64,000 nucleotides of DNA from a virus (IMGVR_UViG_3300043395_004142), one strand, 5' to 3'. Counted from the stretch's first letter, positions 5,950-56,889 are shown. Numbers and translations are program-made. Notes: generated by a model from the letters alone, not told the origin.

Positions 5950-6226
5950 CGCCTCGCCTTTCCCACGTTAGGTGTGCTATAAAAAATCGCGACAAGCAAG
6001 GTTTGCTTCTGAAATCCAAGCACCTTGCAGACCTGATCCCATCAGCCCTTAGGGATGAGCCTGTACGTTCCCGGATAACACATTGGCTCCCGAACCCGCC
6101 CCTGCGAAGGCGGTAAGCACGGAGCCATGGGAGGCGTTGATCCCGTCCCTCGTGTAACCTGTCCTACCTCTGGTGACCCCAAAGAAAGTTTGGGATCCCT
6201 TCCCGTTGGGGATCGTAGAGAAGGGC

Positions 6227-12182: not shown

Positions 12183-14378
12183 ATGTTCAAAGCTGGCGAA
12201 GCCGCGCGAATCAAAGGGTCTGATCGGATCGTCACCATCCTACCCAACGATCCCATTGGGTCAACACCTCCGTGGCCCATCGCTACTAGCGAGGGGGTCA
12301 TGAACGAGATCGATCTGACCCCGGCCCACCCTTCCGTTCTTGCCACATGCGACGGACGAGATCTGTCCGCAGAAGCCTTCCACGCAGGCCAGGAGGCCAG
12401 GAAAGCCCTCGCAAAGGAGGAAGCGGACGGACGGTCCTTCGTGCTTATGGAGAAGGTCGAAAAGACCCTATCAAAAGCCTCGTTCGACTACAACGGTCAC
12501 TGGAAGAGCGGGGCTCTCCTCGACAAGAATTTCAAGGTGCTGAAGGACTTGTTCCTCGGCCCCAGGTCCCTGAATCGGAAGGACGCCGAGGATCTCGTGC
12601 GCGCCGTCAAGGCTAAGGCGCCCATGGATCGGTGGGTTCGGATCGACTCTGTCCTTCGCATGACGCTGCGGAAATGCCCTCTCTGCGGTGAGGACGACTT
12701 TACCATAGAGACGAACGGCCTCACGGTGAGAATCGCCGGGGATCCGTGCAAATTCGCGAACGGGCTCCCCCACACCGAGTGGGAGCTGAACGTGCCGAGC
12801 GGCAAGCTCGTGGTCGCCAACGACCTCCGGGAGATCTTCCCGCTGCCGGAGGACAAAGACTACGATATCAACACCATCATGGGCTGCCGTCAGACGGCCC
12901 TGGCCTATGCGGCGAATGGGATGTCCCACGCCTTCGTGGGGAACACGTGCCCCGGCGTCTACAAGTGCGGGGACGGTCTGTTCAAGATCGCCAACGAGCC
13001 GCAAGACGAGAAATGGGACGCGAAGAAAGAGAAGTACGTCAAAGTCAAGCCCAAGCCCCCGTTCGAGGGAGAGCAGGTAGCGGGTATCTGCACCGACCTG
13101 TGGTGGTACTCTATCTGCGATCACGACGAGTACAAGCGGCGGTGCAAGCGCTTCAAGGTGAAGAGGGACCGCAACGTCGAGGTCGTCGATGTCAAACCCG
13201 GTGTCTACCGCTTCCGCCACGACGAACACGCCCGATCATACGAAGGGCCGGGAGAGAGCGTCTACACGCGGTTCGAGTGGGTACGGGAACCCGATCCGGT
13301 CAAGGACTTCCTTGCCCACTACGAGGAGGTCGAGGTCAACGCGAACGCCTACGTACAGGCGCAGGTTGCCCGCTGGCCGACACTTTACGGCAAGGCCGAT
13401 CCCCTCAACGTAAAGCGGACAACGGTTCCTTGGTCGAAGATGACTCCAGAGGATCGGCATCACTCGTGGAAGCGGGTAGCTGACGACGTGTTCTGCACGA
13501 TCGGCGGGGGTGTCGAGTGGCACGAGAGAGGCTTCCCACGGGCCAAGGTCGATGCCTCCATCCCCGACGTGGATCCGCCGACCTTCCGGGCGCAGTACAA
13601 CTGGTACCCGTTCTCGAAGCCTTACGGAGGTCTGTTCGCGCCCACGACGCTAGCGCCCTCGTTTGCGAAGCTCGCCTTCCGTGTTCTGGAGTCGGTCATT
13701 TCCTTTGGGACGACCGTGCGGGATGACAATCATTCCCGTGATGTCCGCCACGTTCGAGGGCGAATGATGGTGGCCGTGAAGCGGTACCGCGAGCTGGCCA
13801 AGCGGCACCCGGAGCAGGCCGATCCTGAGTACGTAGCCTGGCTCAGTCAGGAGGGACGTGCCGAGGCGTGGGTCGAGAACTTCCCTCTTGGCCCGGAGTT
13901 CACCGAGAAGCATCGGGAGCACGCGAAGAAGCAGAGGTGGGTCCCCGAGGACGCCTACGCGGTGGCCTTCGACGCTCGCAAGCTTACGGAAGGGCACTTC
14001 GCATGGCATCCCAAGCAGGGCGGATGCTGGGCCCACAAGAAGGACGCACATAGGTATGCTCTTAGAGCATGGGAGGACAACGGGCAGCCCCCCGAGCACA
14101 ATTGCTTCTGGAACTGCCACGCGACCAACACATCCGTGCCGCTATACTCCGTCGCCCGCGTGGTGAAGGTCGGAGAGGTATCTCACATGGGCGAGACCCT
14201 CGTCGAGATCGCCTACGACTACGGAACCCCGTGGATGCAGGACAAGAAGAAGAGGAAGGCACTGGCAGAGGCAAAGGAGCAGGCCGCGATCAAAGTTCTG
14301 TCGAAGGAGGAGTACGAACGACTCCTGCCAGAGGCCATCAAGTTCTACGAGGAGATTGAAAGCGCGGTCGAGGTTTAG
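12183..14378 (+). CDS. large hypothetical protein (731 aa) with CPLCGEDD Cys cluster
   Basis: Long ORF of non-biased composition. Minus-strand ORFs across it are Arg/Pro-rich shadows. Confidence 0.6.
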   Translation: MFKAGEAARIKGSDRIVTILPNDPIGSTPPWPIATSEGVMNEIDLTPAHPSVLATCDGRDLSAEAFHAGQEARKALAKEEADGRSFVLMEKVEKTLSKASFDYNGHWKSGALLDKNFKVLKDLFLGPRSLNRKDAEDLVRAVKAKAPMDRWVRIDSVLRMTLRKCPLCGEDDFTIETNGLTVRIAGDPCKFANGLPHTEWELNVPSGKLVVANDLREIFPLPEDKDYDINTIMGCRQTALAYAANGMSHAFVGNTCPGVYKCGDGLFKIANEPQDEKWDAKKEKYVKVKPKPPFEGEQVAGICTDLWWYSICDHDEYKRRCKRFKVKRDRNVEVVDVKPGVYRFRHDEHARSYEGPGESVYTRFEWVREPDPVKDFLAHYEEVEVNANAYVQAQVARWPTLYGKADPLNVKRTTVPWSKMTPEDRHHSWKRVADDVFCTIGGGVEWHERGFPRAKVDASIPDVDPPTFRAQYNWYPFSKPYGGLFAPTTLAPSFAKLAFRVLESVISFGTTVRDDNHSRDVRHVRGRMMVAVKRYRELAKRHPEQADPEYVAWLSQEGRAEAWVENFPLGPEFTEKHREHAKKQRWVPEDAYAVAFDARKLTEGHFAWHPKQGGCWAHKKDAHRYALRAWEDNGQPPEHNCFWNCHATNTSVPLYSVARVVKVGEVSHMGETLVEIAYDYGTPWMQDKKKRKALAEAKEQAAIKVLSKEEYERLLPEAIKFYEEIESAVEV

Positions 14379-24375: not shown

Positions 24376-24585
24376 CTACGGGCTGGAACAGTAGACTATG
24401 CCCTCCCGGACAAGCCGGCGTGTCTCCGTCCTGAACTGGCCCTTGGCAGCCTTTCGACACATCCGCTTGAAGTCACGGAGGTTCGAAAGCTTCCGGCAGC
24501 ACGGGCACCCGTATATCCCGCGTTTCGTCGGGGACGCGCTCGCGCAGAAGGGCTTTTGAAACTTACGAAAGTCGTCCTTTGTCAT
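24376..24585 (-). CDS. hypothetical Cys-rich small protein
   Basis: 69 aa with CPCC. ATGA overlap with upstream gene 24582..26126. Confidence 0.45.
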   Translation of the reverse strand: MTKDDFRKFQKPFCASASPTKRGIYGCPCCRKLSNLRDFKRMCRKAAKGQFRTETRRLVREGIVYCSSP

Positions 24586-26126
24586 CGGCGCCGGGCTGGA
24601 AGGGCAAGACCCCTAGACCACGTGTTGTGGAGACGGTTCTGTCCCCAATCACCTTCTCCCCACGCTACACGTACACCAAGGAGTCGCCCGACGCCACGAA
24701 GAATGTCTTCCTCGGACTCTTCCAATAGGCCGCGGCTCACGGAGTCCCGATCGACCTCGACGGTGGCCGACGCTTGCCCATCGTCTTGGACATCGACGAC
24801 TAGGCTCACGGTCAGCGACTCACATCGAACATCGTACTCCTGGACGCCGGGCCTAGTGAGGGGGCTCATCGCCGCGATCTTGGCGCCCCCAGATCGCATA
24901 ATTTCCCTAAAGAACCATCGCGTCCAAGGGCCAAGAACGCCAGGCCCCTGGAGGATATAGAACCTAAATGCCTCCGCGAAGGCTTCTGTAGGGCTCGTTG
25001 TCGCGTATTCAGAGATTGCTTCGATGTGAACCTTCTCCCCTACGCCCAACCGAAGCAACGCTTCTCGTAGACCCGCGATATCATCGTTACGGAGGCCCAT
25101 AGGGCGAGACCAAAAGGCAAGCGCCTTGAACTTGGCCTCTTTGATAGGGTCTTCTTCGTCCACGGCTCGGACGAGATCTTTCGTGGACCATAGGTCCGTG
25201 TGCTTCACGAGGAACGTATTGACGTACTCATTTACGTCATCGGCGTCGATGACGTGAGTCCGCTCAGTAAAAACCTCTTCCCAACGTGCACGTGCTTGCG
25301 GGGTCAAGTTGCGGAACCAGAAGCGGTGACCCACCTCATGCGTGAACGTTCCCCCATCGCTTTTGATGAATCCCAGGGGAAAGACCTGCATCGTATCTGT
25401 TGCCGCGTTGTACTGGCCTGCCGTAAGACCCGTAGGGCGCCCAAGTTTCTCCGGATCGGCAAACTGAACGCTGACCGTCATCCCCTTGAGGGCGTCTCCG
25501 AACCCAGCACGCTCGATCCGCTTTGCGAAACCATCGAGCTTACGCATGAAATCATCGAGATCCTCCTCGTAGGCGCCGTTGTCATCATCACGGCCAAAGT
25601 TGTAGACGACGACGTTCATCCCTGCGATCGAATGCTTCTCAATCGCATCGCGCCGCTCTAGAGGTCCCTTACGTTCCTGATCCTCGATGTACTCCTCAAT
25701 GACCTTGAACGCCTCCGTGAACTCCTTCTGATACCTACGTACGTTCTTTTCGATGTCCTGTGCAAGCTTCGAGGGAGAATCCTGATGTGTGTCTGTCTTG
25801 TAGTCCCATACGGATGGAAAGAGTCCGCCCAGCGAGATAGCTGCGTCCCAAGCCTTTGTTCGGACTTGCTCTTCTAGCCAGCCTTTACCCTCTTTCTTGT
25901 TCGTAGGGAGCAAATGCCGGTAGACCCAATCCTCAAAATTCTTGCGAAATCCATTGAAGAGCTGGCGCGCCTCCCGGAACAGATCCAGCCGGTCCTCTTC
26001 CTTCGCCGCGGGAATCGATCTGTAGATCTTTGTCATTCGACGAAGATCGGCCTTCCAGCGCTCTACATCATGCTTGGTGATAGCAGCGGCCTGACGCCGG
26101 TCATAGGAGTATCGCTGGTAGTCCAT
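24582..26126 (-). CDS. HExxH zinc-metallopeptidase-like protein (paralog of 8739..10526)
   Basis: 514 aa. FTHEVGHRFWFRNL and TEAFAEAFRFYIL are present. Confidence 0.6.
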   Translation of the reverse strand: MDYQRYSYDRRQAAAITKHDVERWKADLRRMTKIYRSIPAAKEEDRLDLFREARQLFNGFRKNFEDWVYRHLLPTNKKEGKGWLEEQVRTKAWDAAISLGGLFPSVWDYKTDTHQDSPSKLAQDIEKNVRRYQKEFTEAFKVIEEYIEDQERKGPLERRDAIEKHSIAGMNVVVYNFGRDDDNGAYEEDLDDFMRKLDGFAKRIERAGFGDALKGMTVSVQFADPEKLGRPTGLTAGQYNAATDTMQVFPLGFIKSDGGTFTHEVGHRFWFRNLTPQARARWEEVFTERTHVIDADDVNEYVNTFLVKHTDLWSTKDLVRAVDEEDPIKEAKFKALAFWSRPMGLRNDDIAGLREALLRLGVGEKVHIEAISEYATTSPTEAFAEAFRFYILQGPGVLGPWTRWFFREIMRSGGAKIAAMSPLTRPGVQEYDVRCESLTVSLVVDVQDDGQASATVEVDRDSVSRGLLEESEEDILRGVGRLLGVRVAWGEGDWGQNRLHNTWSRGLALPARRR

Positions 26127-30034: not shown

Positions 30035-30307
30035 TCAACCCTGTTCCTTCCAACGCGCTCGTACAATCTTCTGGGCCTCCTTGATCGAAGCATGATGCTC
30101 GCACGGCACCATGCTCAAGGGGAGCGACACGATAGTGATCGGGTCGAGGTACTGCCCTAGCTCGCCGCACTTTACGCAGATAACAACAGTACCAGGAGTA
30201 GGATCAACGAACGCGCCCTCCCCTGTCGCCGCTGCGACAAACACGTAACCGCAGGCAGGGCACTTCGCGTTGGTACTGGTGTGACGCGCGAGTATAGCTT
30301 TTCGCAT
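30035..30307 (-). CDS. zinc-ribbon protein
   Basis: 90 aa with CPACG...CVKCG. Confidence 0.45.
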   Translation of the reverse strand: MRKAILARHTSTNAKCPACGYVFVAAATGEGAFVDPTPGTVVICVKCGELGQYLDPITIVSLPLSMVPCEHHASIKEAQKIVRARWKEQG

Positions 30308-30388
30308 TGTTTGACCTATGAGATGAGGAGGGCGGTGTCGTCTTCGTAGGGCTCAAACGATCTTATCTGCGCGTCGTAACCCCCGAAT

Positions 30389-30955
30389 TCACGGATGGGA
30401 GTTGCGGCTGCTTCGGGGCACTTCCACGAGGAGGGGGCCCGGCTTTGGGTACATGCTCGCCGCCACATCCGAGACATTAACTTTCATGCCCTTACGCGAT
30501 GGCAGAGAACTCCACCGGCACTCGGCCGTATGGATCGAAGTCATGAGCCACGCCTCCTTTGCGAGCTTTTCGACCCACTTAGGAAGGGCTGCCGATCGTG
30601 TGCACTCCGTCAGTACCACGGGTATGGGAAATGCAGCAAGCCGGTCCAGCTCTTCCCGAACGGTCGACGAATCCCATGGACGCCAAAGTAGACCGTCCAC
30701 AAGAGCCATCGAACAACCCTCTATACTTTTGAGGTTATCGAGGGGGCCTGGGATCAGCCTCACGGATGCCCCAGGCGCCCCCTTATGAAGGCGTACCTGG
30801 CACAGATCCGCATCCTCGTAGAACTCATCCCCAGGGATAAGAACCGTTCCGGTCGGTGCCTCTTTGGCCACCTTGAAGAGAAACAGAGTTTTACCGAGAC
30901 CTGGGCGGCCAGCTACAACCGTCAGGCCCGCGGGGAAAGGGAGTGTCGTATTCAT
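30389..30955 (-). CDS. small RecA-superfamily P-loop ATPase (Sak4/KaiC/DnaB-C-like)
   Basis: Walker A VVAGRPGLGKT near the N-terminus. Its ~188-aa size is that of the minimal RecA-fold ATPases found in phage recombination modules. Confidence 0.5.
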   Translation of the reverse strand: MNTTLPFPAGLTVVAGRPGLGKTLFLFKVAKEAPTGTVLIPGDEFYEDADLCQVRLHKGAPGASVRLIPGPLDNLKSIEGCSMALVDGLLWRPWDSSTVREELDRLAAFPIPVVLTECTRSAALPKWVEKLAKEAWLMTSIHTAECRWSSLPSRKGMKVNVSDVAASMYPKPGPLLVEVPRSSRNSHP

Positions 30956-31036
30956 GCGACACTCCTTACACCGAGGGTTGTCTTCGGAAAGGGTTATTCA
31001 GGGCCCCTAAACAATTTCTAGCACACAACCTGGGGG

Positions 31037-32956
31037 TTATGTAGATGGGTGACCGATGGGAGGGGCTCCAAGGTTGTTGCTCGACCCTCCCTTCACCTTC
31101 TCGGTAACCGCAGTGACTGTCTCGACAGCGACCTCCGTGAGCTTCTTGGCCGCTTCCTGCGTCCCTTCGCTGGCGCCCGAGAGGAAGCCCTCGATAGCCT
31201 GCGATATTCCCATCCCACGGGCGAAGGCATCGCCCATCCGGGCAACGTCCTTGGGGGTACCGTAGACGTTAGCCGTGATCTTCCCGTAGATTTGAGCCGT
31301 CGCCTTCGCGCTCTCGATACGGACCTCTGCCTCCTTCTCGATACGGAATTTAGCTAATTCGAAGTCCTGTGCCACGGAACCACTCTGTGCACGGGCCTCT
31401 AGCTCAGGTTTAAGGACCTCTTCAACCCGCTGCTTATCTACCTCGACTTCACGCGCACGAACTTCGATAGGTACCATCGCAACGGCCTTCTGACCCTCTG
31501 CTTCTGCGAGAAGACGGGCCCGCGTACCCTCGGCTTCTGCAAGCTTCTGAGCTTTGTCACCCTCTGCTCTAGCCTGTTGAGCCGCCATTTCAGCCTGAGC
31601 CCGTTTGCGAGTAGCTTCAGCATCCGCGTCTGCACTGGCCTTGCGGGCATCCGCTTCAGTCTTGGTCTTATAAGCCGCGGCATCCGCCGCCTTCTCGGCC
31701 GTCACGTACTGCTTCTCGGCCTCTGCCTTGGCCGCGAGAACTGCTTTAGCCTTCTCACGCTCGGCCGTCGCTATCTGCTCCACCGTGATGACTTGCTGAC
31801 GAGCCTTCTGACGCTCAGCCTCCGCCTCGGCCAACCGAGCCTCTGCCTGAGCCTTCTCAGCCTCTGCCACGGCCACGGCCTGTTGTTGAGCACGTTTGGC
31901 GACTTCGACCTTCTGATCGGCCTCCGTAACCGCCTGTAGCTTTGCTTTCTCGGCGATCTCAATATCCCGAGCTTGAGCACGTTTGGCGACTTCAACAATC
32001 TTCTGCTGCTCAACTTGAGCCACCTGAAGAGCCTGTTGCGTAGCGATTTGCTTTTCTTGAGCTATGCGTTGCTGTTCGGCTTCAATAACTGCAATCTGGG
32101 AGGTCTGCGCAGCTTCCGCCTCAGCCTTCGCGCGCTCAAGTTCGAGCACTTGCTTGCGCGTGGTCACGTCCTGCGCCGTGCGGGCCTGCTCCCCCTTACG
32201 AACGATCTCGTTGCGTTCGGTGAGGTTTTTCTGGGTGATCTCCGCGATCGTCCTCATGCCCTGCGCGTCGAAAATATTGTTCGCCTTGAGATGTTGCTCG
32301 TCGGTCTGATCGAGCTTCGAGATCGTCACAGTCTCCAACTTGAACCCGTTATGGTTCAGGTCCGTCGAGACGAGTTGCGTAACCTCCTTCAAGAACTCAT
32401 CACGCTCTGAATTGAGCTGCTCCAGCGTCTTCCGAGCGGCGGCCGTTCGGAGAGCTGACACGAGCTTGTCCTCGATGAGCTTAGCGACGTTCTGCCGCGG
32501 GTCATCCATCTTGTCCCCAAGAGAGCGAGCCGCCGATTGAATAGACTCGTCGTCGGGCTGGACACGCACGAAGAACTCGCTCTTGATATCCGCACGGAGC
32601 TTGTCGGCCGTAATGAGAGCGTCGGCCCCTTTGCGTTCGACATCCAGGCGAACGGTCTCCAGAGAGACCCGGACGTACTGGTGAACGACGGGAAGAACAA
32701 TCGCACCCCCATCCCGAATGACCTTCAGACCGCCCATACCCGTCCGCACGAAGGCTTCAGAAGCGCGCGTCTTTACGTAGAGCTTCGTGATCGTGAGGAG
32801 CACGGCGCACGTTACGACGAGGAGGATCCCAGATGCCACCATGAAGCTCGAAGAAAACCCGCCGATCTCATGGTGCGTGACGTTCAAAGCAATAGGCGCC
32901 CCAATGAGCAGGAGCCCGAAGACCAGAACCAACGCGAGTGCGAATCCCATTTTCAT
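31037..32956 (-). CDS. yqiK: flotillin-like SPFH/band-7 protein (YqiK family)
   Basis: N-terminal TM helices, then an SPFH domain (VRTGMGGLKVIRDGGAIVLPVVHQ...) and a long Ala/Glu/Gln-rich coiled coil. AGGA SD upstream. Confidence 0.75.
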   Translation of the reverse strand: MKMGFALALVLVFGLLLIGAPIALNVTHHEIGGFSSSFMVASGILLVVTCAVLLTITKLYVKTRASEAFVRTGMGGLKVIRDGGAIVLPVVHQYVRVSLETVRLDVERKGADALITADKLRADIKSEFFVRVQPDDESIQSAARSLGDKMDDPRQNVAKLIEDKLVSALRTAAARKTLEQLNSERDEFLKEVTQLVSTDLNHNGFKLETVTISKLDQTDEQHLKANNIFDAQGMRTIAEITQKNLTERNEIVRKGEQARTAQDVTTRKQVLELERAKAEAEAAQTSQIAVIEAEQQRIAQEKQIATQQALQVAQVEQQKIVEVAKRAQARDIEIAEKAKLQAVTEADQKVEVAKRAQQQAVAVAEAEKAQAEARLAEAEAERQKARQQVITVEQIATAEREKAKAVLAAKAEAEKQYVTAEKAADAAAYKTKTEADARKASADADAEATRKRAQAEMAAQQARAEGDKAQKLAEAEGTRARLLAEAEGQKAVAMVPIEVRAREVEVDKQRVEEVLKPELEARAQSGSVAQDFELAKFRIEKEAEVRIESAKATAQIYGKITANVYGTPKDVARMGDAFARGMGISQAIEGFLSGASEGTQEAAKKLTEVAVETVTAVTEKVKGGSSNNLGAPPIGHPST

Positions 32957-32962
32957 TCCTTT

Positions 32963-33619
32963 CTAGTTGGACTCAAATCCGTCGGTCGGGTCCGGGCAGA
33001 CATCGTAAACATCGTTCTTCTCATCGTACTCCGTGAGGAGCACGTGCCGTCCCTTATCCAAGGGCTCAGATGCTCTGCAAGCCACCAGGTAGAGATCCCC
33101 GCCCTTGCGGACGTGTGCAATCCCCCCGGCCTTATCGCAGGGGAGTGTCAAAACCCCAGTGCAGCCGACGAGATCGGAGCGCGTTGTGCTCGTCGTCTCC
33201 AGAGTCGGCATGTAGTGCGCGACGAGACGTGCGAACATCCCCGTCATCGTCGCCATGACCACGGAGGCCGCGGGAAACGTGATGAAGATCCCAAAACCGC
33301 CGACCCTCTCCAAGAACCCTTGAAAGAGGAAGTTCACGATGACGCCCGTGCCACCGAAGGTGAGGGCCATCGTCATAAAGACGAGAAGCGCAGGCGCGCG
33401 TCCGAACCCGAGAAGGAACAACGGCGACGAAAAGTGGTGCACCCCATCGTGATCAGTTTCCCACATATCCGGGTGACCATCACCGTCGAGATCGATGCCG
33501 TGAGGGACCTCGGCAACCCCGAGCGCCATTCCTAGCGCCATCAAGACCCCCACCGCAAGGGGAATATAGAAGACGAGATGCTGCCAATCGAGGAAATTCA
33601 TCTTGGCCCGTACATACAC
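32963..33619 (-). CDS. NfeD-like membrane protein (YqiJ family)
   Basis: Multi-TM N-terminal part plus a C-terminal soluble beta domain, immediately upstream of the flotillin gene. This is the conserved NfeD-flotillin operon arrangement. Confidence 0.65.
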   Translation of the reverse strand: MYVRAKMNFLDWQHLVFYIPLAVGVLMALGMALGVAEVPHGIDLDGDGHPDMWETDHDGVHHFSSPLFLLGFGRAPALLVFMTMALTFGGTGVIVNFLFQGFLERVGGFGIFITFPAASVVMATMTGMFARLVAHYMPTLETTSTTRSDLVGCTGVLTLPCDKAGGIAHVRKGGDLYLVACRASEPLDKGRHVLLTEYDEKNDVYDVCPDPTDGFESN

Positions 33620-34916: not shown

Positions 34917-35540
34917 TCACCCGGCCGCTGACGCCTTCTTCTCCCGCCCCCTGCGCTTATAGATACCCTTTACAATGTCCAGGTAAGGATCGAGCATGTA
35001 GAAGTTTGACCAATCACAGATAGGGATAACCAGGTGATCTCCCCATCCGGCTGAATCGATCGCGTCCCAGATCCGTCCTCTCTGGTCCCACTGCCTCTGG
35101 CTGATGTGCGATGGTCGGTCCGTATTGTTCCAATAGGCATAGTCCTCAAGACGCTTGTCTCGTTTGAGAAAATCCAGCGCCTTACACATCAAAGAGTCGC
35201 AGTGAGGTATAACGTAGAGGCGGTCAGCGTGCTCGCGAATAGCCACGCACACATCAAAGTTGAAGGTGTCGCGTTCAAGCTTGCCGAGCTGAGCGCGATA
35301 CATCTCACGTATAGCGTTTCCAACTATGCGTAACCGGGCTATTTCTTCGTCACCGTTATAGACGGCCAAGGTCTTCTGATATGCCTCGGACTTGGTATCA
35401 ACCCCGTCCAGCATAGTCTTATACAACTTGACCAACTCCTTCTTGACGTTCTCCTCACCCCTCCGCCGGGTATCTCGAACGAAAGGCCATAAGTGGCGAG
35501 AGTCCTTGAGCCGGTAAGCGACATAGATCTTTGTGGACAT
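34917..35540 (-). CDS. hypothetical protein
   Basis: 207 aa, non-biased. Confidence 0.5.
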   Translation of the reverse strand: MSTKIYVAYRLKDSRHLWPFVRDTRRRGEENVKKELVKLYKTMLDGVDTKSEAYQKTLAVYNGDEEIARLRIVGNAIREMYRAQLGKLERDTFNFDVCVAIREHADRLYVIPHCDSLMCKALDFLKRDKRLEDYAYWNNTDRPSHISQRQWDQRGRIWDAIDSAGWGDHLVIPICDWSNFYMLDPYLDIVKGIYKRRGREKKASAAG

Positions 35541-35637
35541 AAAGGCTCATTACACCGAGCCGCTGATTCTGCCCGAAAAGTCCTTTAGTGTGCCCGTTTG
35601 TCGGGCAGTCGGTGTATTTGGAGGGCAGCGAGATCCC

Positions 35638-37077
35638 ATGAAGCGTTCGCGGAAACTCTACGTCCACGAGGAAGTCAACGAGGGGAAGATATCCTCTCTC
35701 GACGATCTCCACGTCGAATACCGTCGCTACCTCCAAGCCTGCATCGATGCGATGCTCGCCGCTCATCGAACCATCATCTCTCGCAAGGATCTCCTCGACT
35801 TCTTCCCACCCGAGTCCGTCCTCTCCACCAACATCGTCGCGGCCTGCCAACAGCACGCCGTCGCGATCGTCTCCGGGTGGGCTATCTCTCGCTATACGAA
35901 TCACGTCAAGAAGGCGATCCAACGATTCGCTCGTGAGGACGTCATCGACGAACCCACGAAGATCCAGCTCTTCACAATCGGAAAGTACAACCTCGACAAG
36001 CCCACCAAGACCATCTCCCAAGAGGCGCTCGACCTCTATTGGACGCTTTTGCTCGACGCCGGGAAGGCCCCGACGGTTTCAAGTCGTGTTGGGATCCGAA
36101 CCTCGATCCATACGAGCGATCTCCGACTCAACGAAGACACCTCACTGACTCCCTGGTGGCTGGGGTTCTCCGGCCTCGCAAAAGGCAAGAGAACGTGGCT
36201 TCCTCTCAAAGCCAATCCGTTCGTGAAGTCACCCAAAGATGTCACGAAGGGATGTCTCCTCAAACGAGATCGAAAGGGGAGATGGCGCGTCGAGGTCGTC
36301 GAGACGAAAGAGTACGAAGTCCCCGATCCGCTTCCCGACGCGCCTCGTCTCGGGATGGATGTTGGCCTCAACGTCATCGCTGCGACGAGTGACGGGCGAC
36401 TCTTCGGAGAAGCGGTCAAATCCAAGTTTGACGTTCTCTACGGGAAGATGCGATCGACGCGAGCGAACCGACAGAGACAGGGATTGAAAGAGAACTCGGC
36501 GAGGTTGGATAGCCTCGAAGACCGTTTGAGCGGGTTCATCAAGACCGTCACGGGAACGATCGCGAACGATCTGATCAAGAGTCACCCTGCACATGTCTTC
36601 GTCCTAGAGGATCTCGATCTTCGGGGGTGTCGCGGGCAGAAGAGGTTCGCCTATCGAGCGCTTCATCGTGCGTTGAGTATGAGGACACTCACGATCGCGA
36701 TAAACGCGGCGTACACGAGTCAGATGTGCCCTTCTTGTGGGTACGTCTCGCGAGGGAACCGAACTGGAGTCAGGTTTATCTGCCGCAGTTGTGGCAGGAA
36801 AAGTCATGCGGATGTGGTGGGAGGGATCAACGTGCTCGGACGTTCCGAGGACACACACGTTGGTCTCGACGATCATCCTTCCGAAGTGAAGGCTTTGTTA
36901 AGAGAGCGATACCGCGCACGTAGGCGGGACAGTTCCTCAAGAGAGCCCGAAGTAACCGCGCTGCTAGCTTGCAGCCGAAGGCTTACTACGCGGGGATCTC
37001 CCTCGGGAGACACGCGCACAGCCTTGAACGCCTATGGTATTTCTCGGGCAGTCCCACCTCTTGGCGGGCACCCGTGA
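35638..37077 (+). CDS. tnpB: TnpB-like RuvC nuclease (IS200/IS605 OrfB, IS1341-type)
   Basis: RuvC-I GMDVGLN, RuvC-II VFVLEDLDL, zinc finger AYTSQMCPSCG...CRSCG, and RuvC-III HADVVGGINVL are present. GGAGGG sits upstream of ATG 35638. Confidence 0.8.
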   Translation: MKRSRKLYVHEEVNEGKISSLDDLHVEYRRYLQACIDAMLAAHRTIISRKDLLDFFPPESVLSTNIVAACQQHAVAIVSGWAISRYTNHVKKAIQRFAREDVIDEPTKIQLFTIGKYNLDKPTKTISQEALDLYWTLLLDAGKAPTVSSRVGIRTSIHTSDLRLNEDTSLTPWWLGFSGLAKGKRTWLPLKANPFVKSPKDVTKGCLLKRDRKGRWRVEVVETKEYEVPDPLPDAPRLGMDVGLNVIAATSDGRLFGEAVKSKFDVLYGKMRSTRANRQRQGLKENSARLDSLEDRLSGFIKTVTGTIANDLIKSHPAHVFVLEDLDLRGCRGQKRFAYRALHRALSMRTLTIAINAAYTSQMCPSCGYVSRGNRTGVRFICRSCGRKSHADVVGGINVLGRSEDTHVGLDDHPSEVKALLRERYRARRRDSSSREPEVTALLACSRRLTTRGSPSGDTRTALNAYGISRAVPPLGGHP

Positions 37078-37315: not shown

Positions 37316-38338
37316 CTAACAGCTTGCCATCTTAGACTCGCGCTTCTTCGCGATGATCTCCGCGGCGTTACTGAAATCCGCCGGGTACTTCCACTTCTTC
37401 CAGTCCGGGAAGCCTGCGTCGGCGTCGAAGCCGCTGAGTACCGTCAACACTTCATCAACACTCTTCTTGATCTGGTCCCCGTACCGCTGAAGTTCGTTGA
37501 GCCGTAGCTCGCCGAAATCCTCGTCGAATTGCGTGATGATGCTGTGGCAACGGCTGTAGATGTCGTCCCAAGCCAGGGGCACTTCCTCACTCGTCACGAT
37601 GAGAGACATGAGCTTACCCGACTCGGTGCGAAGCGCCTTGAAATCGGAGACAAACTTCGTGGTCTCCGAATAGAGGGTAAAGATCGCGTCGAATGTGACA
37701 TCTTCGGACGCTCCGAGCCCAACGAGGCCGGCGCTGACGTAGGCGTGCTTTCGCTTCAAGGCGGTGAACTTGCTCCCCATGCGAAGTGCCTTACTGGAAA
37801 GGCTATGCACGAGGTCAAAGGCCGTTTTCCAATCCTTGTGCGCTTTCTCAGGAGCCTCCGTGTCCTGGATAAGGTCCAAGGCATCGGCAAGGTCATCCGT
37901 CAGGAACTCCTTGAGTTCCCGCTTCCACTTAGGGTTGATCTCTACCGAGGAGAGAGCCCTGTGGAAGGCGTCTAGAACCTTGTTGGACTCGACCTTGATG
38001 GTTGCAAGGCCACGTTGAATCTTCCGCTCGGCTTCCTGCCGAGCCTTAGCTACGGGATCCTCTTCCTCGTAGCGCTTGGTGAGGTCTCGCGTGCGTTTAC
38101 CGTCGAGTATCTCTTTGGCAACGTTTAGCTCGACCATCTTCCGAGGGTCACCACCGCGGTCTGGGTGGAACTGAATCGCTCGGTTCTTGTACGCCTTGGC
38201 TATCTCACCGGGGGATGGAGAGTAGTCTGGAGGGAACCCCAGGACTTCCTTTGCGTCGTCCATGTTCATGGACATGAACAAACGGGTGTGAAGCGCGGCA
38301 GTGCGACGATCGTAGTCCATCAGGTTGAACCTCTTCAC
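37316..38338 (-). CDS. J-domain (DnaJ-like) protein
   Basis: KAYKNRAIQFHPDRGGDPRKMVELNVAKEIL contains the canonical HPD motif. The rest of the protein has no recognisable family. Confidence 0.65.
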   Translation of the reverse strand: MKRFNLMDYDRRTAALHTRLFMSMNMDDAKEVLGFPPDYSPSPGEIAKAYKNRAIQFHPDRGGDPRKMVELNVAKEILDGKRTRDLTKRYEEEDPVAKARQEAERKIQRGLATIKVESNKVLDAFHRALSSVEINPKWKRELKEFLTDDLADALDLIQDTEAPEKAHKDWKTAFDLVHSLSSKALRMGSKFTALKRKHAYVSAGLVGLGASEDVTFDAIFTLYSETTKFVSDFKALRTESGKLMSLIVTSEEVPLAWDDIYSRCHSIITQFDEDFGELRLNELQRYGDQIKKSVDEVLTVLSGFDADAGFPDWKKWKYPADFSNAAEIIAKKRESKMASC

Positions 38339-39932: not shown

Positions 39933-41951
39933 GTGCCCATCTCCACACCCCTTAGGATGGCACGGTACGCCGAGACTTATGCGACCTATGTAGGCATGAG
40001 CACAGCTTTTCGTGTCGCGCACCGGTATCTGGCCGCCGCAAAGTATGACCACATTGACTTCAAACCACCGAAAAGCGTTGCCGAAACAGCGGCAAAAGGC
40101 TTGGAGTACCGCAAGAAGCAGACTGACAAAGCCGGTCTAACCCCCTCGGAAGCCTCGAAAGAGGGCATTGGTTCTGGGGTGCAACGGGCGGTGAATCTGA
40201 AAAACCGGGACAATGTGAGCCCCGAAGTTATCCGTCAAATGAGTGCCTTCTTTGCAAGGCACGAAAAGAACAAGAGCATCTCCCCCGAGCATCGCAATGA
40301 GCCGTGGAAAGACAAAGGCTACGTGGCTTGGTGCCTTAAGGGGGATACGGACGTTCTCTTGGCCGATGGAACTTGGCTACCTATCTCCAAGATCGTTGAG
40401 GACAAGCTGAGTGTGAGGGTCTGGTCCTACAATGAGGCGACCAAGACCTTTGAACCGAAAAAAGTGGTCGGATGGAGTGTTGCCCCCGCAAGCCTTGAGG
40501 ACTTCTACATCGTCGGGAAGCACAAGACAATGCGGCAAGGTATCAGTGATCGCACTTTTCTGGCCGCTACCGCCGAACACCCATTTTACGTAGAGGGGGA
40601 ATGGGTTGAGGCTAAGGACATGAAAGGGCGTGTTCTTAGCATCGTAGATCGGGGCCTGGACCCGATCTCGGAACAAGTCCTTCTCGGTACCCTTCTTGGA
40701 GATGCTTACATTTGGAAGTCTAGTGACAGTGCGGGCACGCTTCGCATGGCCCACGGGTCTGACCAACGAGAATACCTGCATGAAAAAACTCGCCTACTAC
40801 ACCCGTTAGTCTGTAGTCAGTTTGACACTCCTAACGAGAGTGGTTTTGGGCGAATGGGATTGGTAAAGTGCTGCACTTATACGGCAAGCACGCTCTACCT
40901 AAGTTACATCCGTGATCGTTTCTACGACGAGGAGGGTGTCAAGAGAGTTACCCCCACACTATTGAGGTCACTTGAAGACGTTGGAGTAGCCTTTTGGCTC
41001 ATGGATGATGGGAAACTCAAATTCTCGGAGAGAGACGGCCACTCCTCATGGATTCTGCATACCGAAGGGTTCGATGAAGAAAGTGTCGAAAACATCGTAC
41101 AATTTCTGAGGGGCCGTTATGAAATAGATGCTCGCGCCCAAAGGCGGGAGAACACGGACGGATCCACCGTATACTTTACCGTAGAAGGTACTCGGAAGAT
41201 GATGGCTCGGCTAGCACCCTTCTTCCACCCCTCTATGCGCTACAAGCTACTACCCGAATACCATGACGTTCCTTACGTATTAGCGGATCATTCCCCAAAA
41301 AGCGAGTTGGTGCTGTGTCCCCAACCTGTGACTCGGTTTGGGAAAGCTACGGATGAATACACAAGCAAGGCCGCTCGGAAGCCGTATAAATGGGAGTGGC
41401 GGTATAACCTTGAAGTGGAAGGCAACCACAACTTCATCGCCAATGGGGTGCTGGTTCACAACTGCCTTTGGGGCGGAGACCCTGGCAAAGCCTGGGCGGA
41501 CAAGATCAAAAAGCAGATGGAGGCCGCCGACCAAAAGACCGCGTCCCTTGGTGCAGGGGCCCTCACCCATGAATTGATGAACGATCTGGCTTCCGCCTAC
41601 CGGGGCAAGCGTATGCGCGATGCTATCCGTGACATGGAGCTTGCCGAGGTGCCCCAGGTAATGGCCGAAGAAGTCTACCGCAAGGTAGGGCAACACGCCG
41701 ATGAGGTTCGCGGTAACCTCCACCGTCTTCTCTCAGGCGTGCGAGTCGAATTCGAAGGAGGAGACCGGCCTGGCTGGGTCTGCTCCGACGAAACCGGCAC
41801 CATCTTCGTCCCGGCAGACGGAAGCCCTCCTCCACACGGAGGCTCGATCGCTCTTCGATCTGTAGCGGGCGCTATGCACGAATGGTGCAAAACCGATGTC
41901 CTGAGATATGGTGGTGCGAATCTCACAAAGATGATGAAGTCCACGGAGTAA
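39933..41951 (+). CDS. hypothetical protein interrupted by a LAGLIDADG intein
   Basis: Exteins total about 295 aa (res 1-133 and 511-672). Predicted spliced junction: ...KDKGYVAW|CLWGGDPGKAWADKI. Confidence 0.6.
   Translation: MPISTPLRMARYAETYATYVGMSTAFRVAHRYLAAAKYDHIDFKPPKSVAETAAKGLEYRKKQTDKAGLTPSEASKEGIGSGVQRAVNLKNRDNVSPEVIRQMSAFFARHEKNKSISPEHRNEPWKDKGYVAWCLKGDTDVLLADGTWLPISKIVEDKLSVRVWSYNEATKTFEPKKVVGWSVAPASLEDFYIVGKHKTMRQGISDRTFLAATAEHPFYVEGEWVEAKDMKGRVLSIVDRGLDPISEQVLLGTLLGDAYIWKSSDSAGTLRMAHGSDQREYLHEKTRLLHPLVCSQFDTPNESGFGRMGLVKCCTYTASTLYLSYIRDRFYDEEGVKRVTPTLLRSLEDVGVAFWLMDDGKLKFSERDGHSSWILHTEGFDEESVENIVQFLRGRYEIDARAQRRENTDGSTVYFTVEGTRKMMARLAPFFHPSMRYKLLPEYHDVPYVLADHSPKSELVLCPQPVTRFGKATDEYTSKAARKPYKWEWRYNLEVEGNHNFIANGVLVHNCLWGGDPGKAWADKIKKQMEAADQKTASLGAGALTHELMNDLASAYRGKRMRDAIRDMELAEVPQVMAEEVYRKVGQHADEVRGNLHRLLSGVRVEFEGGDRPGWVCSDETGTIFVPADGSPPPHGGSIALRSVAGAMHEWCKTDVLRYGGANLTKMMKSTE
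40332..41462 (+). mobile_element. intein (377 aa) with LAGLIDADG homing-endonuclease domain
   Basis: Block A CLKGDTDVLLADGTWLPISKIV. LAGLIDADG-like LLGTLLGDAYI and AFWLMDDGKL. C-terminal EVEGNHNFIANGVLVHN followed by +1 Cys. Confidence 0.8.
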
Positions 41952-50162: not shown

Positions 50163-51086
50163 ATGGCTATCCTTCGGCACCTCATCTCAATCAACGACCT
50201 GACACCCGATGAAATCAAAAGTCTCTTCTTCCACGCGAACCTACTCCGAGGGTGCGAGCACCTCTGGGACCCCTTACAAAAGAAGCCCCTAGCCGGCAAG
50301 ATCCTCGCCTGCCTCTTCTACGAGCCCTCGACACGAACGAGCAGCTCGTTCATCGCCGCTATGGCACGCCTTGGAGGCACGGTCATCCCCATTACGCAGG
50401 GCGTCCAGTTCTCTTCTGTGTCGAAGGGCGAGACCCTGGAGGATACGATCCGCACCCTCGGACAATACGCCGACGCCATCGTCCTCCGGCACCCCGTAGA
50501 AGGATCCGCGAAGTCCGCTGCTGCGGTCTCCCCTGTTCCCGTGATCAACGCGGGCGACGGAGCCGGAGAGCACCCAACGCAGGCCCTCTTAGACCTCTTC
50601 ACGATGCGTGACGTGAAGCATGACCTCGAAGGAAAGACTATCGCCCTCGTCGGGGACCTCCTCTACGGGCGGACCATTCACTCCCTCGTGCGCCTCCTCC
50701 CACGAGAAGGCGCCAAGCTCATCCTCGTGAGCCCACCCGAACTACAACTCCCCATCGAGCTACGAAGCTTCGTACCTGCGGACACCGTAGAGGTCCATAG
50801 CCTCGGTGACGCCATCGAGCACGCGGACATCGTATACATGACCCGGGTCCAGAAAGAGCGCTTCCCCTCTCTGGAAGCCTACGAGCATGTAAAAGACGCC
50901 TGTGTACTCACGCGCGCCCTTATGCAGAGGGCCAAGCCCGATGCGGCCATCATGCATCCATTACCACGCGTAAATGAGATCGAACGCGAGATCGATGACG
51001 ACCCTCGCGCCGTCTACTTCACACAGGTCAGGAACGGCATGTTCGTTCGTATGGCCATCCTCCAAAGACTCATCCAACAACAATAA
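50163..51086 (+). CDS. pyrB: aspartate carbamoyltransferase catalytic subunit
   Basis: EPSTRTSSSF (STRT motif), GEHPTQALLD (HPTQ) and MHPLPR (HPLP) are present. 307 aa. GAGGGG SD upstream. No pyrI follows. Confidence 0.85.
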   Translation: MAILRHLISINDLTPDEIKSLFFHANLLRGCEHLWDPLQKKPLAGKILACLFYEPSTRTSSSFIAAMARLGGTVIPITQGVQFSSVSKGETLEDTIRTLGQYADAIVLRHPVEGSAKSAAAVSPVPVINAGDGAGEHPTQALLDLFTMRDVKHDLEGKTIALVGDLLYGRTIHSLVRLLPREGAKLILVSPPELQLPIELRSFVPADTVEVHSLGDAIEHADIVYMTRVQKERFPSLEAYEHVKDACVLTRALMQRAKPDAAIMHPLPRVNEIEREIDDDPRAVYFTQVRNGMFVRMAILQRLIQQQ

Positions 51087-51137
51087 GACCCTAGCCCCAC
51101 GGACACCTCACAAATTCCTTGACTGCCAAGTGTTGCA

Positions 51138-51156
51138 TGTTGTACCACGTACAACA
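51138..51156. promoter_or_regulatory. operator-like palindrome tgttgtac-cac-gtacaaca
   Basis: 8-bp perfect inverted repeat with a 3-nt spacer. It lies 7 nt upstream of the XRE regulator ATG, and TTGACT sits 5 nt further upstream. Confidence 0.45.
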
Positions 51157-51162
51157 CTGGAC

Positions 51163-51537
51163 ATGAAAATGAGCGAGAGTGCACGTCGGGCCTTTGGTGA
51201 CCACGTGCGGCAACTACGAGAGGAGCGTCGTCGAATTGATGGCGCCTTCTCTCTGAGGAAGGTTGCGGAGAGGGTTGGTATCGAGCCGGGGTACCTGAGT
51301 CGAATTGAGAGGTGGGACGTAGACCCGCCCGCAGACGAGAAGATCATCGCGCTCGCGAACGTGCTTGGGGCGGACCCTGATGTCCTTCTCGCCATGGCAG
51401 GGCGCATACACCCGGATCTCGTCGAGATCATCGGAAGCAAACCAAGGTTCTTCGCAACACTGCTAAGGCAACTGAGGGATGCGCCGGATGAGCAACGCGA
51501 GGCGATTGCAGCCCTCGTGAGGGACGGTAATTGGTGA
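51163..51537 (+). CDS. XRE-family helix-turn-helix transcriptional regulator
   Basis: SLRKVAERVGIEPGYLSRIERW is a classic HTH_3 (Cro/CI) motif. The ORF track starts at 50974 inside pyrB; ATG 51163 is preferred. Confidence 0.65.
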   Translation: MKMSESARRAFGDHVRQLREERRRIDGAFSLRKVAERVGIEPGYLSRIERWDVDPPADEKIIALANVLGADPDVLLAMAGRIHPDLVEIIGSKPRFFATLLRQLRDAPDEQREAIAALVRDGNW

Positions 51538-51552
51538 GGAGAGAGGCTAATT

Positions 51553-52590
51553 ATGGCAACAGTAGAATTGAAGAACGACACACTCTGGTTCGAGTTCCCG
51601 GAAGTCCACGAAGATGCGAAACTCGGGATTGATCTTCAGCGCACACTGCGCATCCCGGATGACGGGAAGAAGTACAGCCTCCCGCCCGGACTAGGCAGCT
51701 TTCCGATGTGCCGTGTGGACGAGTACAAGGCAAACGCCCCAGCCTCGTGGATCGAACATGGTGGTATCATGATCCCCATGTATCAATCGGAAGCCATGTG
51801 GATTCGCTTCCAGCCAAGTCACACCTATGATCGTGACAGCGCCTATCCTTTCGCGATCAAAATCTCCACGGGCAAGGTGAGTGCAGTCACCGGCGAGACA
51901 TACCAAAAGGGGCTTAAAAAGGGCGACTATCTAGTTGCGCCCCTCCAACCATGGCTCGATGGGTACGTCGTAGAGAAGGGGCTCATCCGCCAGTTCGTGG
52001 CAACCCCCCTAGGGTCCGGCTTCAGCGCAGAGGCACAGATCACCGGGCAGGACATCCACGGCGGCATCCAAGTCGAAGTCATCCCGATGAAGAAGGAGAA
52101 CTTCGAGCGCCGATTCCCAAAGCGCAAACCCGTGCTCTACTCCACATGCGATTCCATCGAATACGAACGCGGTTTTGGTCCGTCTGCTGCGGCAGCGTCA
52201 ATCGATATGAGTCTCGCGCCCGGCGGTATGATGAAGCAGGAGATCTACGAAGACCCGTACGGACTCGAAGAGTGGGCCCGAGGGTACACAGCCCGGTGCT
52301 TCATCCACATTGCCAACTCTCTCGTCTGGAGTGCCATTACGGGCAAGCAGCCCCCGACGACGCCCCCGACGGCCAAGCAGTACACGAACGCGGGGCTCCC
52401 GTGGTTCGAATACTACAACGATGCGCTCAAGCACGTGAACGCGACCGACAAGCTCAAGGGCCTGAAGGGCGTTGCTGAAATGGGCAAAGAGAAGAAGATG
52501 CCCATGCTCCCGGAGAATGAGCCCGTCTCAGGTGAAAAGGTCGTCGTCCTCAAGGGCAAACCCAACGAAGTACGCCAGGGGACTTGGTGA
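51553..52590 (+). CDS. hypothetical protein, tandem paralog A (unknown family)
   Basis: 345 aa. About 50% identical to the next gene along its length: NDTLWFEFP, QRTLRIPDDGK.Y.LPPGLG.FP, QPWLDGYVVEKG.IRQFVA.PLG, GGIQ.EV.PMK.E.FER.F. GAGGAG SD. Confidence 0.6.
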   Translation: MATVELKNDTLWFEFPEVHEDAKLGIDLQRTLRIPDDGKKYSLPPGLGSFPMCRVDEYKANAPASWIEHGGIMIPMYQSEAMWIRFQPSHTYDRDSAYPFAIKISTGKVSAVTGETYQKGLKKGDYLVAPLQPWLDGYVVEKGLIRQFVATPLGSGFSAEAQITGQDIHGGIQVEVIPMKKENFERRFPKRKPVLYSTCDSIEYERGFGPSAAAASIDMSLAPGGMMKQEIYEDPYGLEEWARGYTARCFIHIANSLVWSAITGKQPPTTPPTAKQYTNAGLPWFEYYNDALKHVNATDKLKGLKGVAEMGKEKKMPMLPENEPVSGEKVVVLKGKPNEVRQGTW

Positions 52591-56658: not shown

Positions 56659-56889
56659 GGAACACGTCCCGCAAAAAGGCTATCGACCGACACTGACCGA
56701 TGTTAACGCCAGGGGTGATCTTCGGGAGCGGACCCCGTCATTGATCGGGGTCCCACGGCCACCCTCACGGTCAGCTTTATCGACGTCGAACCATTGCATA
56801 CCTGCCTCTACACCGTGACAGGAACTCGATCCCAAAAACATCTCTCTCGGTTGGGATCGTGGGTCGGATTCGTCGTAGGGATCCTCAAG

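Follow-up and report, generated by a model that had tools for sequence, protein, structure and literature searches.

Why should a viral genome carry a flotillin together with its NfeD-type partner? Such a pair lies on the minus strand of a 64,000-nucleotide stretch of viral DNA (IMGVR_UViG_3300043395_004142, the whole of which is hereafter called the window) and is followed, in the same orientation, by genes for a P-loop protein and a predicted zinc-ribbon (Zn-ribbon) protein. A sequence-only reading of positions 30035–33619 had left two choices, a membrane-scaffolding module of the element itself or a captured host operon. We consider it likely, taking together the identity of the two proteins, the phage setting and a two-plus-two gene structure, that the locus holds a phage-borne NfeD2–SPFH2 operon. 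The four genes, in the order in which they would be transcribed, are as follows.

32963–33619, minus strand: NfeD2/YqiJ-type partner, 218 amino acids (aa), recognised by YqiJ_N and by a profile match to Escherichia coli YqiJ
31037–32956, minus strand: SPFH2-type flotillin (YqiK/FloT kind), 639 aa, recognised by homology, profile and fold matches
30389–30955, minus strand: P-loop protein, 188 aa, with a Walker A motif (GRPGLGKT) and a Walker-B-like motif (ALVDG)
30035–30307, minus strand: predicted Zn-ribbon protein, 90 aa, with CxxC motifs at residues 16 (CPAC) and 44 (CVKC)

All four open reading frames (ORFs) are present exactly where the sequence-only reading had placed them, in one orientation, and all were chosen as genes by a codon-usage score trained on the long ORFs of the window, with the two small ORFs as weak scorers. 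The stop codon of the partner gene lies 6 nt ahead of the annotated flotillin start, and the two genes are tightly linked and probably co-translated. The flotillin itself probably starts at M3 (coordinate 32950), because an AAAGGA Shine-Dalgarno sequence is found there and homologs begin with 'MG...'; for the partner, the true start may be the ATG at 33601. The gaps between the flotillin and P-loop genes and between the P-loop and Zn-ribbon genes are 81 nt each. At 30389–30955, the gene call of the Joint Genome Institute begins at V29 (160 aa) and thereby loses the Walker A motif. The ATG at 30955 is preceded by an AAGGAG Shine-Dalgarno sequence 6 nt upstream and the sole homolog of the protein aligns from residue 1, from which we conclude that the 188-aa form proposed by that reading, Walker A motif included, is correct. 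Scans of the locus for promoters and terminators gave counts that were not above those in shuffled sequence.

By homology, the 639-aa protein is a member of the YqiK/flotillin family, and this relationship is not in doubt. It is 36% identical to YqiK of E. coli K-12 across 440 aa (E = 7e-66) and its relatives in the databases number 1,895. Leaving aside its own database copy, the top 120 are 51–73% identical (E down to 0), and many carry the name flotillin or YqiK from their sources. The Pfam Band_7 model scores 20.8 bits against the window protein (gathering threshold 23.6 bits, E = 4e-4) and is found in nearly all of its homologs. The NCBIfam FloT model matches with E = 4.8e-13 at 49 bits, compared to an equivalog cut-off of 700 bits, and the protein is therefore not a FloT equivalog. 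Searched against the PDB, the family profile matches cage structures of human Flotillin-1 (9BQ2, 9L3G; E about 1e-6), and a Foldseek search with the AlphaFold2 (AF2) model returned the Band-7 domain of flotillin-2 (1WIN, TM-score of 0.70 normalised to the target) as the best neighbour, followed by flotillin complexes and then by stomatin, prohibitin and HflK/C.

The predicted architecture of the protein is likewise that of a flotillin. Hydropathy and the AF2 model place hydrophobic helices at residues 1–28 and 30–63 of the N-terminus, which would form a transmembrane (TM) hairpin at about residues 2–61, and the model has an alpha/beta SPFH/Band-7 domain at residues ~64–217. This is followed by ~330 residues (228–559) of EA-rich helix, rich in A/E/K/Q/R, and by a C-terminal tail. 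AF2 divides the helical region into segments 228–386, 394–493 and 497–559; A/E/K/Q/R account for 60–80% of residues 251–550, and 34 EA/AE dipeptides fall within residues 251–520. The TM segment, SPFH domain and coiled coil of ~350 aa that the sequence-only reading had described are thus recovered, the last with a length of ~330 aa. SPFH2-type flotillins are recognised by an SPFH domain, a membrane anchor combined with a long EA coiled coil, homology to a named member and an upstream NfeD2-type gene, all of which were found here.

Profile comparisons assign the 218-aa protein to the YqiJ (NfeD2) family. The protein itself scores 22.8 bits against Pfam YqiJ_N (cut-off 23 bits), and 21 of the 23 aligned members of its family match YqiJ_N at E ≤ 0.01 (best 6e-14), with three of the 23 matching Pfam NfeD and two matching YqiJ_OB. 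Its family profile aligns to E. coli YqiJ with an hhalign probability of 98.2% (E = 4e-14) and weakly to the NfeD OB domains of 3WWV (stomatin operon partner protein) and 2K14 (YuaF), with E = 0.006–0.008. Hydropathy analysis indicated four hydrophobic segments including an N-terminal TM helix; the sequence further contains an acidic, His-rich loop (DLDGDGHPD...), the motif LGFGRAP ahead of further TM helices, the motif PTLET, and a beta-rich C-terminus with a putative OB-like domain. An N-terminal multi-TM region of the YqiJ type is present, and the pair is of the cellular type, as had been suggested. The partner comes first and the flotillin follows within a few nt, which is the order of E. 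coli yqiJ–yqiK. The genes at 32963–33619 and 31037–32956 are an NfeD2–SPFH2 operon of the yqiJ→yqiK type, a class for which Hinderhofer et al. 2009 gave the definition (PMC2636767).

The pair recurs on other very large phage-like contigs. The nearest flotillin (P0002, 73% identity) is encoded on a 117-kb contig that consists almost wholly of ORFans (ENA ERZ27247880 k141_4292151, hereafter the sister contig), has at least eight non-flotillin genes in common with the window and is syntenic with it on the yqiJ side. Six further close homologs with 62–70% identity (P0004, P0010, P0016, P0017, P0029, P0035) also have ORFan-rich contexts, on contigs that reach 489 kb (P0016), up to 659 kb (P0017), 435 kb (P0029) and 197 kb (P0035). 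Genes around these six, of kinds that huge phages typically carry, encode PTH2, RF-1, HSP20, Acb5, Tad2-like proteins, K1-lyase tailspikes, TopoIB together with HNH, methyltransferases, UDG and Ro60. In IMG/VR, flotillin relatives were detected on at least 14 contigs (25–465 kb), and a YqiJ-like gene is present on all 14. Of 104 loci with an entire flotillin ORF, a local profile search located a YqiJ-like gene directly upstream and on the same strand in 100, and three of the exceptions are truncated by a contig end. The pair is also carried by a cultured phage, Sinorhizobium phage Phosso (469 kb, PV764938.1), as gp491–492: an 'SPFH domain-containing protein' is preceded by a YqiJ homolog (hhalign probability 99.3%) that was annotated as hypothetical. 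By sequence similarity, other huge-phage lineages, Phosso among them, carry more distant versions of the pair. The crAss-like phage csAssE-Sib (OR575929.1) encodes a 'flotillin family protein' that is preceded by a small membrane protein; this upstream TM protein is not recognisably YqiJ-like (probability 13%) and is an ambiguous partner.

Some gene families recur near the pair in subsets of these loci. Small PTH2, DUF488 or NUDIX genes are found within ~1.5 kb upstream of the YqiJ-like gene in loci L005, L104 and L105 and recur upstream on the P0029 contig, where PTH2 itself is ~7 kb away; a TopoIB+HNH gene pair recurs downstream in L105 and L008. None of these genes adjoins the pair in the window. 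Flotillins that are 50–55% identical to that of the window are also encoded on four contigs of 17–42 kb from GTDB metagenome-assembled genomes (MAGs; L026, L027, L032, L039), binned as 'Enterobacteriaceae' (68.6% G+C), Magasanikbacteria and Uhrbacteria. These taxon labels look doubtful, and the contigs may be mis-binned mobile elements.

In a neighbour-joining tree of 95 flotillins, with 200 bootstraps on a 37-sequence subset, the window and the sister contig group together with 97.5% support. Both belong to a core clade that comprises the window, the phage-like loci, four IMG/VR loci, the cellular locus L006 and two Polyangiales MAG contigs; bootstrap support for this clade is 95% when the IMG/VR locus L014 is included. 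L006 is flanked by genes for MurB, ETF and Ser/Thr kinases, its flotillin is 69% identical to that of the window, and it was excluded from the core clade in only 1% of bootstrap replicates. The Polyangiales locus L024 (62% identity) likewise has a cellular context (P-type ATPase, TetR, SDR, DsbA). After addition of 120 database homologs, the core clade contains 67 distinct protein clusters. The tier of 50–55% identity outside the core clade is cellular and includes contigs of 0.8–2.6 Mb labelled delta-proteobacteria as well as P0082, which is flanked by genes for ribosomal protein S15 and malic enzyme. The distant IMG/VR groups L015/L020 and L016–L023 branch elsewhere in the tree, which implies separate acquisitions. 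On this phylogeny, the pair is of bacterial origin, and its closest cellular lineage, Polyangiales (Myxococcota), is interleaved with the phage sequences. Polyangiales/Myxococcota are a probable host group of this otherwise unassigned huge-phage lineage.

Phage loci of the core clade and L014 range from 27% to 65% in G+C content. Synonymous sites are saturated, with a proportion of synonymous differences (pS) of 0.68–0.75, and the ratio of nonsynonymous to synonymous substitution rates (dN/dS) is 0.07–0.15 for the flotillin, relative to both phage and cellular relatives, and 0.16–0.37 for the partner. These values point to purifying selection on the flotillin–NfeD pair within a clade of large to huge phage contigs (117–659 kb). 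Because of the G+C range of 27–65%, the saturated synonymous sites and a dN/dS of ~0.1, we read the pair as a long-resident, selected module of phage genomes and not as a fresh capture; some transfer between phages and hosts, one-way or mutual, has accompanied this residence. The choice between an own module and a captured host operon was thus a false one: the bacterial origin stands, a fresh capture does not, and residence as a selected phage module is what the sequences favour. Three comparisons that the sequence-only reading had called for contributed to this answer. The phylogeny of the SPFH protein against host candidates placed Polyangiales as nearest cellular relatives, nested among phage sequences; related phage genomes, as set out above, do carry the pair; and the operon context is conserved for the linkage of YqiJ-like gene and flotillin and not for the adjacency of the P-loop and Zn-ribbon genes.

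What the pair might do for a phage can be proposed by analogy with its bacterial counterparts. Flotillins of the YqiK type form foci in the membrane and are oriented towards the cytoplasm (PMC10434171), and NfeD partners all have an OB-fold and evolve in concert with the SPFH protein that they accompany (PMC2636767). In Staphylococcus aureus, the OB-fold of NfeD binds the coiled coil of the flotillin FloA and stabilises its oligomers, and the FloA–NfeD complex keeps hold of unfolded membrane proteins with no need for ATP, a property of importance to cells that are under stress and short of energy (PMC11222466). A link between flotillin/NfeD genes and membrane-stress systems of the PspA type has been described as well (PMC9239133). 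Modelled on these systems, the window flotillin would insert into the host inner membrane by its N-terminal hairpin during infection and would oligomerise via its long coiled coil on the cytoplasmic face, where the OB-fold domain of the YqiJ-like partner would bind and stabilise the assembly. Such an assembly could organise membrane microdomains and hold stressed or unfolded membrane proteins without ATP, and the envelope and the energy-generating machinery might in this way be kept working while a very large phage goes through its long infection cycle. We therefore put forward organisation and protection of the host inner membrane as the likeliest specific function, a tentative proposal that we hold to be somewhat less probable than not. 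In Phosso, a gene for a 'toxic anion resistance protein' (TelA-like) is located two genes downstream of the YqiJ-like/SPFH pair (record 355001–359181), which hints at a small membrane-stress cluster.

The main alternative for the function is a role in conflict, through superinfection exclusion, through blunting of membrane-targeting abortive-infection effectors or through modulation of FtsH, and we regard it as unlikely. There is precedent in phage lambda, where the SPFH proteins HflK/C modulate the FtsH protease in the case of CII. Acb5 and Tad2-like anti-defence genes are found 5–8 kb from the pair on two related huge-phage contigs, the TelA-like gene of Phosso is close to its pair, and SPFH cages regulate FtsH in E. 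coli (PMC10434171). A conflict role is disfavoured by the PADLOC defence models, none of which matches any of the four proteins, and by the gene neighbourhoods, in which no neighbour is conserved across the phage groups that carry the pair.

A functionless passenger is also conceivable, that is, a recently captured operon without a role in the phage life cycle. The bacterial origin of the pair is clear, SPFH–NfeD operons transfer laterally as a unit (PMC2636767), and the local context of the pair varies between phage groups. The unit is also common on plasmids: a flotillin beside an 'OB-fold-containing protein' was found in 329 plasmid records, 263 of them predicted to be conjugative and 230 from Escherichia. 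We nevertheless hold this explanation to be quite improbable, given that both ORFs are intact in every examined phage contig over a G+C range of 27–65%, that synonymous sites are saturated with dN/dS values of about 0.1–0.3, and that at least three phylogenetically separate phage groups as well as a cultured jumbo phage carry the pair. Plasmid examples of the unit include NZ_CP022567.1 and NZ_CP039925.1, and the NfeD–flotillin unit is common mobile-element cargo generally.

The phage setting is indicated by the window as a whole, which appears, from its gene content, to be part of the genome of a very large phage and is not host chromosome. For most of its 74 candidate genes, Pfam and PHROG gave no function, and no tRNA, ribosomal or core housekeeping genes were detected in its 64 kb. 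Recognisable genes of mobile-element or phage kind include an ATP-dependent DNA ligase, HNH endonucleases and an exonuclease. The ORF at 6173–7549 matches 110 deposited phage records and IMG/VR contigs of 286–407 kb (62–68% identity), and the ORF at 12183–14378 matches the jumbo phages XacN1 and D479. The other features of the window that were assigned are the following.

24582–26126, minus strand: putative HExxH peptidase, 514 aa, with HEVGH near residue 262 and a weak PHROG 'peptidase' match
35533–37077, plus strand: TnpB-like gene, 514 aa, with a Cas12f1-like TNB domain (E = 1.6e-11) and a PHROG transposase match (E = 1e-25)
37316–38338, minus strand: protein with an N-terminal DnaJ domain, 340 aa
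39933–41951, plus strand: intein and LAGLIDADG endonuclease protein, 672 aa, with these elements at residues about 143–510
about 50163–53618, plus strand: pyrimidine-synthesis gene set, three ORFs of 307–345 aa, from Pfam matches with presumptive assignment to the ORFs
54244–56658, minus strand: right-handed beta-helix/NosD-like protein, 804 aa, without a PHROG match
56794–60129, plus strand: SNF2-family helicase, 1111 aa, into which an intein is inserted that carries a homing endonuclease (Hom_end, LAGLIDADG_3)

For the 39933–41951 protein, the best match, which takes in the extein parts, comes from an uncultured phage of 484 kb (LR756508.1), with 31% identity across 79% of the query. The window thus shares genes with recognised phages and lacks cellular core genes. 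That the region is instead Myxococcota host chromosome or mis-assembled host DNA, with the pair being simply a cellular yqiJK operon, is a reading to which we give very little weight. Its best arguments are cellular homologs nearly as close as the phage ones (L006 at 69% and L024 at 62% identity) and the composition of the window, which carries pyrimidine-biosynthesis genes and no identified virion gene. It is countered by the surroundings of the pair, where every gene for more than 15 kb on either side is an ORFan or of mobile-element or phage type; by the ORFan-rich 117-kb sister contig, which has the nearest relative at 73% identity, synteny on the yqiJ side and many genes in common with the window; and by a G+C content of the genes (58.4%) that equals that of the window (57.7%), with no composition break at the pair. 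The sequence-only reading had itself named host chromosome with flanking housekeeping genes as the finding that would speak against it; no housekeeping genes flank the pair, and the window has genes in common with jumbo phages and the sister contig.

The P-loop and Zn-ribbon genes have a history of their own. Neither protein matched a Pfam, PHROG or PADLOC family, and in a word-indexed search of 5.8 billion proteins both recovered only themselves. An exhaustive HMMER search of 1.84 billion representatives returned one true homolog of the P-loop protein (P0123) and nothing annotated. P0123 aligns over the full length with 47–49% identity, and the Walker A motif GRPGLGKT (residues 16–23) and a hydrophobic strand ending in LVDG (85–88) are invariant between the two. 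P0123 is encoded on the sister contig, on the opposite strand to the flotillin (P0002) and ~11.9 kb away from it, and a tblastn search located a homolog of the Zn-ribbon protein (39% identity, E = 3e-23, all four Cys kept) one small ORF downstream of P0123. No homolog of either gene was found in any of 103 flotillin loci. Because the two genes are paired ~12 kb from the flotillin in the sister contig and are absent from those 103 loci, they are separate from the flotillin module and constitute, as far as homology tells, a phage-specific two-gene unit that adjoins the flotillin operon only in this window. A rearrangement would have put this unit beside the flotillin in this genome only.

The grouping of all four genes in the sequence-only reading is accordingly not upheld, and neither is its label 'RecA-like' for the P-loop protein. 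Only the P-loop aligns to known ATPases: NCBIfam DnaB matches over 25 aligned residues (E = 0.0055), and PDB matches are restricted to the P-loop at E ≥ 0.19, with AAA+ proteins scoring level with RadA/DnaB. The AF2 model has a mean predicted local distance difference test (pLDDT) score of 40 and is unreliable, although strands and helices follow one another in it as expected of a minimal P-loop NTPase. The protein has Walker A and Walker B motifs, and homology or a fold that would place the protein with the RecA/DnaB core was not found. The Zn-ribbon prediction for the 90-aa protein holds at the level of the sequence, with two conserved CxxC knuckles. That the four genes form one module, with a flotillin scaffold driven or controlled by an ATPase and a regulatory Zn-ribbon protein, fits the single orientation, the 81-nt gaps and a terminator scan without a convincing terminator between the flotillin and P-loop genes, and is nonetheless largely refuted and highly improbable given the 103 flotillin loci, the opposite strand and ~11.9-kb distance in the only other genome that has the unit, the strong Shine-Dalgarno sequence (AAGGAG) of the P-loop gene's own, and the ATP-free action known for flotillin–NfeD (PMC11222466).

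Several observations on the remaining features concern how the window might be annotated. Strong PHROG matches to 'terminase large subunit', 'DNA primase' and 'DnaC-like helicase loader' all fall within residues 180–552 of the SNF2-family helicase, that is, within its intein, and were rejected; such spurious matches could make automated annotation mislabel the window. The 39933–41951 protein was likewise rejected as a terminase, its matches other than that to LR756508.1 being only to homing endonucleases or inteins. The TnpB-like gene lies ~2 kb from the flotillin–NfeD pair and overlaps the end of the ORF at 34917–35540. Its only trace in those parts of the sister contig that were retrieved is a marginal match of 28 aa, with no full-length copy, and the gene may be a recent insertion linked to local rearrangement. 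A composite transposon delimited by the two bracketing 514-aa ORFs (24582–26126 and 35533–37077) was discarded since these ORFs are unrelated; the putative peptidase at 24582–26126 has a 22%-identical counterpart on the sister contig. The 804-aa beta-helix protein is a candidate tailspike or depolymerase. Pfam matches behind the pyrimidine-synthesis set are to aspartate/ornithine carbamoyltransferase (E = 1e-46), a dihydroorotase-like amidohydrolase and dihydroorotate dehydrogenase. A PDB sequence search returned no match for the ORFs at 8739–10526, 12183–14378 and 24582–26126, and a megablast search of 24 kb against phage and plasmid collections returned no nucleotide-level match. Searching IMG/VR for exact 46-mers of the window likewise gave no match, and looking up the flotillin by its exact protein sequence retrieved no record.

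Some of the results weigh against the interpretation of the locus as a phage-borne, selected NfeD2–SPFH2 operon with a membrane function. Among the 74 ORFs of the 64-kb window we identified none for capsid, portal, tail or terminase; with no such virion or packaging gene recognised, it is from gene content and relatives that the window is assigned to a phage. Genomic contexts were sampled for nine of the 67 core-clade sequences, of which seven are phage-like and two cellular, the trees were all built by neighbour-joining, and the core clade has 75% support when L014 is left out. The AF2 model of the flotillin has a pLDDT of 61, which is moderate confidence, and the promoter scan of the locus revealed no sigma-70-like promoter. 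With regard to function, E. coli yqiK mutants have little phenotype (PMC2636767, PMC10434171), and the model is borrowed from FloA, a Gram-positive flotillin of SPFH1-like type, whereas the window flotillin is of the SPFH2 type.

With these points considered, a phage-borne NfeD2–SPFH2 operon is still the explanation that we favour, and it would have consequences beyond this locus. A broader proposal, rather unlikely in the form stated here, is that huge phages of Myxococcota-like hosts (contigs to ~660 kb) use the flotillin–NfeD2 pair as a selected accessory module to build inner-membrane microdomains or cages of their own, for example to guard the membrane proteome and the proton-motive force or to scaffold a membrane-bound site of replication or assembly, and that they spread SPFH–NfeD operons together with plasmids. 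If so, such phages and plasmids would be the vehicles behind the patchy lateral distribution of SPFH–NfeD operons among bacterial phyla. The function of bacterial flotillins has been hard to assign, and infection by these phages is a specific setting where the pair ought to be of consequence and which could show what such scaffolds do: phages keep only genes that pay for themselves during infection, and the pair is under purifying selection in several huge-phage lineages. Phosso, with its host Sinorhizobium meliloti, is a cultured and genetically accessible carrier and makes the question testable. Membrane organisation would then join the host processes that are taken over by huge phages.

The sequence-only reading had called such pairs rarely reported in viruses, in agreement with what we found: two reviews on jumbo phages make no mention of flotillin, SPFH, stomatin or prohibitin, and full-text literature searches found no study of phage-encoded flotillins. 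Some deposited phage genomes already carry a flotillin or SPFH annotation. The operon class is well known, and its under-described part is the huge-phage setting.

Among known systems, the window operon is closest in organisation to E. coli yqiJ–yqiK and Bacillus subtilis yuaF–yuaG (floT), in which a small NfeD-like membrane protein is likewise encoded first and the flotillin second with few nt between them, the flotillin has a TM anchor, an SPFH domain and a long EA-rich coiled coil, and the partner combines TM helices with a C-terminal OB-fold (in the window protein a weak profile match). It differs from both in its location on a phage-like element instead of a chromosome and in its closest cellular relatives, which are Myxococcota and not Enterobacteria or Firmicutes; compared to YqiK, the window flotillin is ~85 aa longer and has two N-terminal hydrophobic helices. 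S. aureus FloA–NfeD also combines a flotillin with an NfeD partner and is the basis of the proposed mechanism, but FloA is short (37 kDa, PMC11222466) and belongs to another SPFH subgroup, and the system departs from the window operon in the order of its genes and the architecture of its NfeD. Phosso gp491–492 and csAssE-Sib share with the window a phage-encoded flotillin preceded by a small membrane protein; their flotillins are only 30–41% identical over the SPFH domain and are on other branches of the tree. The pairs on Rhizobium/Agrobacterium megaplasmids and conjugative Escherichia plasmids represent the same two-gene unit on a mobile element, at an identity of at most 43% that is confined to the SPFH region and with no nucleotide-level similarity to the window.

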